Below are positions 19,710 to 21,361 of a stretch of 31,030 nt of DNA, piece after piece. The stretch covers positions 1 to 31,030 of the forward strand of contig RGHK01000001.1 of assembly GCA_010024215.1 (NCBI GenBank), in the 5' to 3' direction. The DNA is from Pseudomonadota bacterium (GTDB lineage Bacteria > Pseudomonadota > Gammaproteobacteria > Magnimaribacterales > D2472). The position numbers and the translations under genes were made by a program. The notes under the pieces were generated by a model, which was not told the origin of the DNA, did not search any database, and was given only the letters and a program-made list of their open reading frames with translations. How positions within the stretch are numbered: the stretch's first letter is position 1; each line of letters opens with the position of its first letter.

Positions 19710-21361
19710 GAAACATATTTTATTATACTTTTGGCTGCTTCACGTCCTTCCCAAATTGCTGTCACAACTAGATCTGATCCTCTTACCATATCACCTCCTG
19801 AAAATATTTTTTCATTGGAAGTTTGGAATTTAAATTCTTGATGCTCTTCAGCAAGAACTAACCCATTTTTTTTAGTATTAATATTAAATTCATCAAACCA
19901 AGAAGATGGGCTTGCTCTAAAGCCAAATGCAATCACAACAGCATCAGCCTCATAAACTACCTCAGATCCTGGAATGGGTATTGGAACTCTTCTAGCATTT
20001 TGATCTGGTTCACCTAACTGAGTTTTAACAATTTTTACACCCTCAACTTTATCTTCTCCAATAATATCAATAGGTTGTATATTAAACTCAAACTCTACTC
20101 CTTCTTCTTTAGCATTTTGTACTTCTCTTTTTGAACCTGGCATATTTTGCTCATCTCTTCTGTACAAACATTTTACTGATTTAGCACCTTGTCTAATTGC
20201 AGTCCTATTGCAATCCATCGCAGTGTCTCCTCCACCAAGCACGATAACGTTTTTACCTTTAAGATTTATAAAGTCCTCTTTTTTTTGTTTTAATCCTAAA
20301 AGCTTTTTGGTACTAGATATTAAATAATCTATAGCTTTATATACTTGAGGGAGTCTTTCACCAGCAAAGCCGCCTTCAAGAGAGGTGTAAGTTCCCATTG
20401 CTAAAAAAATTGCATCGTAATCTTCATATAGTTTCTTGAAAGGAATATCTGCACCAATTTCTTTGCCTAATTTAAATTTAACACCCATCTCTTCAAGAAT
20501 TTTTCGCCTTCTTTTTACAACAGTTTTCTCCAATTTAAATTCAGGAATACCAAAAGTCAGCAATCCTCCAATTTCTTCATTTTTGTCATAAACATGACTA
20601 TGAACGCCAGATCTTGTTAGTACATCTGCACATGCAATTCCAGCAGGGCCTGCTCCAACAATAGCTACCTTTTTATTGGTCCATTTTCTATGCGACATAT
20701 CTGGCTTCCAACCCATTTCAAACGCTTTTTCAGTAATATATTTTTCTGTAGAGCCAATTGTAACTGCTCCAAAACCATCGTTTAATGTGCATGCTCCTTC
20801 ACATAGCCTATCTTGTGGACATACTCTTCCACAAACTTCTGGCAAACTATTAGTAGAGTGACAAAGTTCAGCAGCTTCAATGATATTTCCTTCATTAACA
20901 AGCTTTAACCAGTCGGGAATATAGTTATGAACTGGGCACTTCCACTCACAATATGGATTTCCGCAATCTAAACATCTATGTGCCTGACTAGATGCTTGAA
21001 CCTGATTATATTCACCATAAATTTCAACGAAACTAATTTTTCTTTCCTCTGCTGATTTTTTTGTAGGATCAAATCTGCCAACTTCAAGAAACTGAAAGTC
21101 ATTTTCAAGCTTTTCATGTGTAGCATACTCATCTCTGAAATTTGCAGAAGTTATGCCTGCTCCTTTATTAGAAGATCCAAATATTTCTTCGCGCCACTTA
21201 TAAAGCATCTCTAACGCATCATCATAATCTTCGACTGGAGCAAATGATTTTGTTATGTATTTGCCATTAACTCTTAGCTTGCCATAAAAAAATGGAGATC
21301 TAGGTTGAGTAAAAAGCAAAACTCCTTTCTCAATCTTATATTGCTTATTTTTTTTATTCAT
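19706..21361 (-). CDS. gltD: Glutamate synthase small (beta) subunit with an ~84 aa N-terminal extension
   Basis: [85 protein letters not shown]. Canonical GltD homology begins near residue 85. Confidence 0.97.

Follow-up and report, generated by a model that had tools for sequence, protein, structure and literature searches.

PutA, a flavoenzyme with an N-terminal ribbon–helix–helix domain, represses the divergent putA–putP control region and thus unites an enzyme and a repressor in one protein. In tyrosine integrases, e.g., the HPI integrase (PDB:3JTZ), lambda Int, and Tn916 Int, the arm-type domain, with ~60 residues folded as a β-sheet on a C-terminal helix, stands at the N-terminus, and short arm sites adjoin the integrase gene. 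For IntS of prophage KplE1, Panis et al. (2010, PMC2951348) showed that the overlap of attL with the int promoter results in negative autoregulation, and they predicted this outcome for the majority of integrase genes associated with tRNAs. Here we describe a gene that shares features with all these systems, gltD, encoding the small subunit of glutamate synthase (GOGAT), in a 31,030-nucleotide stretch (hereafter, the window) of a SAR86 genome (1.12 Mb, ~32% GC, 257 contigs, 82% complete). SAR86 bacteria are among the most abundant surface-ocean heterotrophs, and GOGAT is central to their nitrogen assimilation.

The gltD open reading frame (ORF) occupies positions 19706..21361 of the minus strand (551 amino acids plus the stop codon) and, according to the ORF call and Pfam/NCBIfam searches, encodes an integrase-type N-terminal domain, a linker, and a canonical glutamate synthase small subunit. 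About 62 residues at the N-terminus make up a folded domain, homologous to the arm-type domain in tyrosine integrases of one small, tRNA-targeting family. We hold with moderate confidence, mainly from comparative analysis, that this N-terminal head binds two direct repeats upstream of the gene and autoregulates gltD.

The GltD head resembles the arm-type domains listed above both in the sheet-on-helix fold and in sequence homology to integrase N-termini, and gltD has short direct repeats adjoining the gene, as integrases have arm sites. Unlike in integrases, the head is attached to a metabolic enzyme subunit and not to core-binding and catalytic recombinase domains, there are two repeat copies only and no core site, and the head lies outside the curated Pfam hidden Markov models (HMMs) of arm domains. 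As at KplE1 IntS, the candidate sites overlap or adjoin the gene's own promoter and start, and the related integrases sit by tRNA genes; in contrast to KplE1 IntS, the gltD product is not a recombinase, there is no recombination directionality factor or att core, and the regulation is proposed by analogy. Similarly to PutA, GltD is a flavin redox enzyme with an N-terminal putative DNA-binding module and a candidate operator in the divergent spacer beside its own gene; it differs from PutA in the fold of this module, in its mobile-element origin, and in being a subunit of a two-gene enzyme. What sets the present case apart from the known ones is the Fe-S flavoenzyme partner, the candidate operator captured together with the head, and a parallel capture by a Rieske protein. 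A full-text literature search yielded no description of a GltD fusion, in line with the preliminary description of this DNA, whose author knew of none, and in public annotation the fused protein is a plain "glutamate synthase subunit beta," the extra domain having been missed.

The boundaries of the enzyme are well defined. TIGR01318 (gltD) matches residues 89–550 with 731.8 bits at a cut-off of 482.95, and Fer4_20 (E = 1.5e-38) and Pyr_redox_2 (E = 9.5e-30) are both found by Pfam from residue 109 on; hence the protein combines a full-length match above the curated cut-off with both the Fe-S and the FAD/NAD(P)H domains of GltD. Residues 89–551 (19709..21097, minus strand) form the canonical core, with two Fe-S cluster motifs in Fer4_20 and the FAD/NADPH-binding Pyr_redox_2, as delimited by Pfam, TIGR01318, and the orthologue alignment. 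Compared with the canonical GltD of TIGR01318, this core is full-length and retains the Fe-S and FAD/NADPH motifs, whereas the N-terminus carries an 88-residue addition and gltB is divergent instead of lying upstream in an operon. Unfused orthologues from a sister SAR86 family (f4) are 53–55% identical, and their alignment begins at residue 85–86, so that the earlier placement of the start of canonical GltD near residue 85 is borne out. Residues 63–88 (21098..21175, minus strand) are a linker, as judged by the alignment, the predicted local distance difference test score (pLDDT), and the ratio of nonsynonymous to synonymous substitution rates (dN/dS). The first two thirds of it are variable in length and sequence and have low pLDDT, with residues 65–81 disordered in the AlphaFold2 model, while its last part (~residues 76–88) is better conserved and runs into the GltD core.

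The start codon is equally constrained. A stop codon lies two codons upstream of the gltD ATG at 21361, the open frame comprising 553 amino acids, and the only other in-frame methionine ahead of the GltD core, M52, falls within the predicted helix, with no alternative start in the sequence between M52 and the core. As M52 is inside the helix and residues 4–50 are conserved, translation from M1 is required, which confirms the earlier claim that the extension has to be translated.

The homology of the domain was established by a profile built from six GltD-type and three Rieske-type copies (the latter are considered below) and searched against 1.84 billion representative proteins. It produced just 65 matches; besides fragments of both fusions, these included full-length proteins of 351–415 amino acids with the domain at the N-terminus, and E-values of the integrase matches span 2e-14 to 3e-4. 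The full-length, divergent recombinases P0156, P0158, and P0169 match the domain profile with E-values from 2e-14 to 2e-10, and positions 91–377 of their joint profile match Tn1549 Int, XerA, and XerD (E = 8e-13), whereas P0185 and P0186, also matched by the domain profile, are recognized by Pfam Phage_integrase (PF00589) with E-values 7e-17 and 7e-15. The domain is the N-terminus of tyrosine recombinases P0156, P0158, P0169, P0182, P0185, P0186, and of the integrase from genome G035. The alignment over the domain has only isolated, single-residue gaps, and the window domain is 37% identical to the P0158 N-terminus over 60 residues (E = 1e-15 in pairwise BLASTP). No match was found when the domain profile was run against the PDB by hmmsearch. 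A side finding was P0178, a 281-residue integrase-like fragment in which two tandem copies of the head are followed by a SAM-like core-binding domain.

The predicted structure agrees with this homology. The AlphaFold2 model has strands at residues 7–11, 14–18, 25–31, and 34–39 and a helix at 46–62, with pLDDT of 87–90 for residues 11–60; that is, an antiparallel β-sheet is predicted to pack against one C-terminal helix in ~55–65 residues, as in arm-type domains, and the order of strands, turns, and helix guessed in the preliminary description fits the model. The exhaustive VIA-align search placed the HPI integrase arm-type domain (3jtz_A) second, with Z = 5.8 and, over 60 residues, a root-mean-square deviation of 2.5 Å and 20% identity; AP2 domains from plants and Plasmodium had Z = 4–4.6, and residues 8–62 of lambda Int, Z = 4.0. 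The ESM-Atlas feature neighbours (0.93–0.95) were Integrase_DNA (Tn916), Arm-DNA-bind_1, _2, and _4, and Integrase_N_phage (PF02920, PF09003, PF12167, PF14657, PF26003), i.e., arm domains of the Tn916 and lambda types. The domain (residues 1–62; 21176..21361, minus strand) consists of a basic N-terminal tail, four β-strands, and an acidic helix, and its assignment draws on the AlphaFold2 model, the 3jtz_A match, the homology to integrases, dN/dS, and the Atlas neighbours; by hand count, residues 1–40, the β-sheet half, contain 11 Lys/Arg and one acidic residue. Homology and fold together place the domain in the arm-type superfamily, although no curated HMM recognizes it. The fusion of GltD to an integrase arm-type (AP2-like) domain, first suggested from the pattern of residues, has thus gained the backing of profile homology, the 3jtz_A match, the Atlas neighbours, and the integrase-like repeat layout described below.

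A scan of one genome per species found the extension encoded in 122 species; we compared the best 80 loci of these 122 species-level genomes, yielding, with the window, a set of 81 genes. All 80 are SAR86 gltD genes, including those of SAR86A, B, and E, of many single-cell genomes, and of a closed chromosome. With residues 1–95 as the query, a word-indexed search retrieved 1530 proteins of 514–567 amino acids, every one with GltD domains. We further took an even sample of the order, comprising 30 genomes of the SAR86 family with the fusion (f1) and 90 genomes of the three sampled families without it (f2–f4). The fusion is present in 29 of the 30 f1 genomes, representing nine genera, always in a frame of 549–625 amino acids.

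The 76 full-length fused genes each consist of one uninterrupted ORF, without a stop or frameshift, and hence unite an enzyme and a putative DNA-binding domain in a single polypeptide, as trigger enzymes do. The NKQY of the N-terminal tail is invariant across the 76 fused proteins, and likewise the strand residues. In 76 gene pairs with core dS of 0.15–1.2, dN/dS is 0.064 for the domain (residues 5–62) and 0.14 for the linker, against 0.038 for the enzyme core, so that purifying selection is nearly as strong on the domain as on the core. Contigs from four metatranscriptome runs span the entire extension contiguously with gltD. On these grounds, we give almost no credence to the extension being an artefact or decaying relic, i.e., an assembly chimera, a mis-called start, or an untranslated leader, even though no Shine-Dalgarno sequence precedes the gltD ATG, and some metagenome proteins with the head, P0133 and P0148, are clearly chimeric. 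A low dN/dS, intact frames in all 76 genes, and the lack of any start between M52 and the core contradict a relic or leader; a chimera is excluded, since the same fusion occurs in single-cell genomes, a closed chromosome, and many species, as well as in long-read metagenome-assembled genomes. The survey and the dN/dS estimate proposed in the preliminary description thus turned out in favour of a domain that is not decaying, and the chimeric assembly that it had named as a ground for rejection is contradicted by the genomes themselves. Separately, three metagenome proteins, P0148, P0133, and P0125, join a GltD-type head to unrelated sequence, e.g., the C-terminal half of a TatD hydrolase; most likely, these are chimeric short contigs and not additional fusions.

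Upstream of gltD, at 21379..21395 (minus strand), the repeat search identified two direct repeats of GTCATAC (plus strand, GTATGAC) that follow each other at a 10-bp period and that we consider a candidate arm-type operator. In the window, the layout is GTCATAC-n3-GTCATAC, and it ends 17 nt ahead of the gltD ATG; the candidate operator with both half-sites reads GTCATACnnnGTCATAC. The pattern G[T/A]CATACnnnGTCATAC, that is, G[T/A]CATAC-n3-GTCATAC, is present in 81 out of 81 fused genes, ending 4–35 nt before the start codon. The three nucleotides between the copies vary (TAT in 48 genes, TGC in 11, TTC in nine, and others), and apart from the repeat, the 100 nt upstream of gltD are AT-rich and poorly conserved. 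The combination of two invariant 7-bp copies and three variable nucleotides between them is the signature of two protein half-sites and not of one promoter hexamer.

The exact motif has one copy in the window genome and one in each of five relatives, and copies with two mismatches are as frequent as in the reversed-pattern control; a global-regulator site, considered as another identity of the repeat, is ruled out by these counts. The exact motif was found in 28 of the 30 f1 genomes; one more has it with a single mismatch, and another has neither the motif nor gltD. Among the 90 genomes of f2–f4, the exact motif occurs in one (G109, family f2), inside an ORF, and this copy is a chance match; upstream of gltD, the repeat was found in none of these three families.

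The large-subunit gene gltB (21457..25572, plus strand; ORF call) lies adjacent to gltD, providing the expected partner, and is divergent from it, the two genes being separated by 95 bp. It is divergent in all fused loci where the upstream flank was read, that is, locus L014 and 11 more. In f4, gltD is unfused, and the single f4 genome that was examined (G030) has the classical operon, the gltD start overlapping the stop codon of the co-directional gltB. The contrast between the fused, divergent loci with the repeat in f1 and the unfused operon in f4 indicates that the head, the repeat, and the split of gltBD go together.

Recombinases with the related domain have similar sites at their genes. 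In four loci (L102, L103, L104, L099), the space between the tRNA gene and the integrase gene contains direct repeats with a 10-bp period, often accompanied by an inverted copy next to the ATG. The G035 integrase (382 amino acids, SAR86 family f3; L099) directly follows tRNA-Phe, with five TTAACAC(A) repeats between the tRNA gene and the ATG. P0156 is located after tRNA-Met and has GTGAACA-n3-GTGAACA, with the inverted TGTTCAC two bases before the ATG, and P0158, after a tRNA 3′ end, has TATACACACA twice in tandem plus an inverted copy. At P0169, pairs of GTTCACAC flank a tRNA-fragment core, and the integrase-proximal pair has the 10-bp period. Judging by these four integrases, two repeats of 7–10 bp with 10-bp spacing, less than ~60 bp from the start, are the arm-site signature of the family, and gltD has it. 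No GenBank phage matched the P0158 integrase or the head, and IMG/VR contained one distant integrase relative only, which leaves a phage origin of the integrase family unsupported.

Two of these loci have further features. In L099, the small island (2351–5268) continues after the integrase with a DNA methyltransferase-like ORF and then a putative restriction enzyme, forming a restriction–modification pair. In L104, the GTTCACAC pairs at 2030–2250 surround a tRNA-gene fragment beside P0169, and a resolvase gene is close by; the order P arm, core, P′ arm resembles the attP-type layout of an element that is excised or carried by a phage.

A related head is found on the Rieske Fe-S subunit of cytochrome bc1 in 19 out of 30 genomes of a genus (g4) from another SAR86 family. 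The fused frames have 267–292 amino acids (L011, 2188–3024, plus strand; L012, 1861–2661, minus strand; L013, 1723–2526, minus strand; also L116–L129); the head precedes the twin-arginine motif and the membrane anchor, and genes of cytochromes b and c1 are next. In 16 out of 16 Rieske loci examined, a TTGAACAC...GTTCAAA site after rpsI is followed by a TATAAT box and by a second site running into the ATG. The sites, TTGAACAC..TGTTCAA (TTGAACA/TGTTCAA), resemble GTGAACA/TGTTCAC of P0156, where an inverted copy likewise adjoins the ATG. In the two fused genomes tested, the site pattern occurs nowhere except upstream of the fused gene, and three unfused genomes of this genus, whose Rieske proteins have normal length and are 79–81% identical, lack it. 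The window genome's own Rieske gene is unfused. The Rieske head is 56–63% identical to the integrase head P0154 and 48% to P0156, compared with 26–41% to the GltD type, whereas the best integrase partner of the GltD-type head is P0158 (33–44%); the Rieske capture is independent of the GltD one. This second capture, with sites of its own, supports the protein head and the DNA sites working as a pair.

Taken together, these observations suggest the following scenario. An ancestor may have captured the 5′ module of an integrase, that is, arm sites, promoter, start codon, and ~65 codons, in front of gltD, and the capture would have coincided with a rearrangement that turned gltB around and left gltD without the operon promoter. 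The N-terminal domains of GltD would then bind both half-sites: GltD is oligomeric in the glutamate synthase holoenzyme, so that two heads would be available for two half-sites. In the first copy, TG-T-CATACT can be read as an extended −10 promoter in combination with a T-rich, moderately conserved hexamer ~17 nt upstream, in which case the gltD start would be in or just after the second copy. On this reading, the repeats overlap the probable extended −10 and start region of gltD and are ~45–60 bp upstream of the gltB start site; with the sites over the promoter region, binding would feed the GltD level back on gltD transcription. The feedback would probably be repression, as for integrases with arm sites over their own promoter. 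Fused GltD thus probably regulates its own gene. It may be a trigger enzyme, as proposed in the preliminary description, an idea strengthened by the invariant, once-per-genome repeat laid out like integrase arm sites. Whether GltB assembly or the NADPH/FAD/Fe-S state modulates the binding is a matter of speculation.

Binding of the head may also coordinate the divergent gltB, for which a TGaTATAAT extended −10-like element was read directly from the sequence at 21425..21433 (plus strand) and is not a promoter-scan result; a TGnTAnAAT element can be recognized by eye in most of the 81 spacers, ~30 bp from the repeat, and related TGTGnTAnAAT forms occur in spacers of relatives. A stronger version, in which the domain binds the repeat mainly to activate or coordinate gltB, balancing the subunits after the operon split and leaving gltD repression secondary, seems to us rather improbable. 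The repeat does lie ~30 bp upstream of this element, in a position typical of upstream activators, and the fusion coincides with the loss of the co-directional gltBD operon, but the related integrases and the Rieske fusion have their sites right at the start codon of the gene itself, without a divergent partner, and the documented precedent is negative autoregulation (PMC2951348).

Arm-site-like repeats at one boundary of the inverted gltB could also mean that the head and the sites serve as an accessory for a recombinase acting in trans, which inverts or moves the gltB segment. This is highly improbable: gltB is divergent in every fused locus with the flank read (L014 and 11 others), neither a second arm cluster nor a core-type site was seen, in f1 genomes, the domain has no further copy and the repeat has no exact duplicate, and the metatranscriptome contigs contain no joints.

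Several observations weigh against DNA binding and autoregulation by the GltD head. The top VIA-align match (Z = 6.0) was an unrelated small α/β protein, and thus the fold evidence alone would be weak, not decisive. The Foldseek search against the PDB returned nothing at E ≤ 0.001, with weak AP2 rows only and a mitoribosomal protein in the top, non-significant row; hence, of the structural checks suggested in the preliminary description, the AlphaFold2 model matched the arm domain of the HPI integrase and, more weakly, AP2 domains, whereas Foldseek gave no significant hit. Residues 1–95 have no Pfam or NCBIfam match at E up to 10, which includes the curated arm-domain HMMs (Pfam Arm-DNA-bind_1 to 5, Integrase_DNA, DUF4102), and DUF6538 is the sole HMM match, below the threshold and for the Rieske and integrase types only. 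Because the domain and the repeat share their inheritance, finding both throughout f1 counts as a single evolutionary event and not as 29. A consensus promoter and terminator scan of the spacer returned nothing, and therefore the placement of the repeat with respect to the start sites was judged from the sequence only; moreover, the repeat could be conserved as the promoter itself, given the similarity of TGTCATACT to an extended −10. The Rieske sites, being inverted repeats, could also act as RNA hairpins.

The RNA data consist of unstranded assembled contigs, which break at strain variation too. On the gltD side, the contigs end at 21346–21368, and on the gltB side, they begin at 21390–21409, leaving a gap over the proximal repeat copy in three of the four runs. 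The gap is weakly compatible with the proposed gltD start in or after the second copy; with unstranded contigs and possible DNA in the libraries, the RNA data are weak evidence.

Some of these points would also fit a domain that has kept the fold but lost DNA binding, serving as a protein-level module (solubility, contact with GltB or another partner, turnover), with the repeat being the captured promoter or a site of another factor. We regard this as unlikely, albeit less so than the other alternatives. The first repeat copy with the preceding TG does read like an extended −10, the conserved segment around residues 76–88 beside the core could pack against the latter, other roles are known for AP2-like folds, the top Foldseek row being a mitoribosomal protein, and DNA binding by the head is here only inferred. 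On the other side stand the two 7-bp copies, which are invariant while the intervening three nucleotides vary, the unstructured basic tail with NKQY invariant across 76 species, and the 11 Lys/Arg against one acidic residue in positions 1–40. Furthermore, there is no other regulator gene in the vicinity, and the genome has this site only once. Finally, the independent Rieske capture has kept cognate-looking sites.

If the head of GltD binds the repeats, then an autoregulatory cassette of a mobile element would have been captured whole to regulate a core metabolic gene, trigger enzymes, a small class, would gain a new origin and a new DNA-binding fold, and the case would illustrate how streamlined genomes can gain regulation without a separate regulator gene. 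The idea can be tested directly, since it involves one 60-residue domain and one 17-bp site, and the Rieske capture provides a comparison with another site specificity. A tentative generalization from the two cases, GltD and Rieske, which we consider possible rather than likely, is that SAR86 repeatedly made front ends of tRNA-island integrases (arm sites, promoter, head) into built-in, single-gene regulators of subunits of Fe-S redox enzymes that consist of several subunits; the unassembled or unexported subunit would bind its own operator, coupling expression to assembly or redox state without a dedicated factor.

Genes around gltD encode an acyl-CoA thioesterase, HemE, AroB, AroK, a class A penicillin-binding protein, and CobS/CobT-like proteins, with no regulator gene among the neighbouring genes read. 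The GltB protein of the window (1371 amino acids) has an in-frame gap of ~109 residues, with the junction near 22617 (region 22560–22680). The gap extends from the end of the amidotransferase domain to the ...MSKMHRQ... segment, and the GSMGDD stretch is among the residues lost. This segment, or at least its first ~80 residues, is kept in 12 out of 12 relatives read (L014 and the 11 matching loci); the gap is either a strain-specific deletion or a collapse in the 257-contig assembly.

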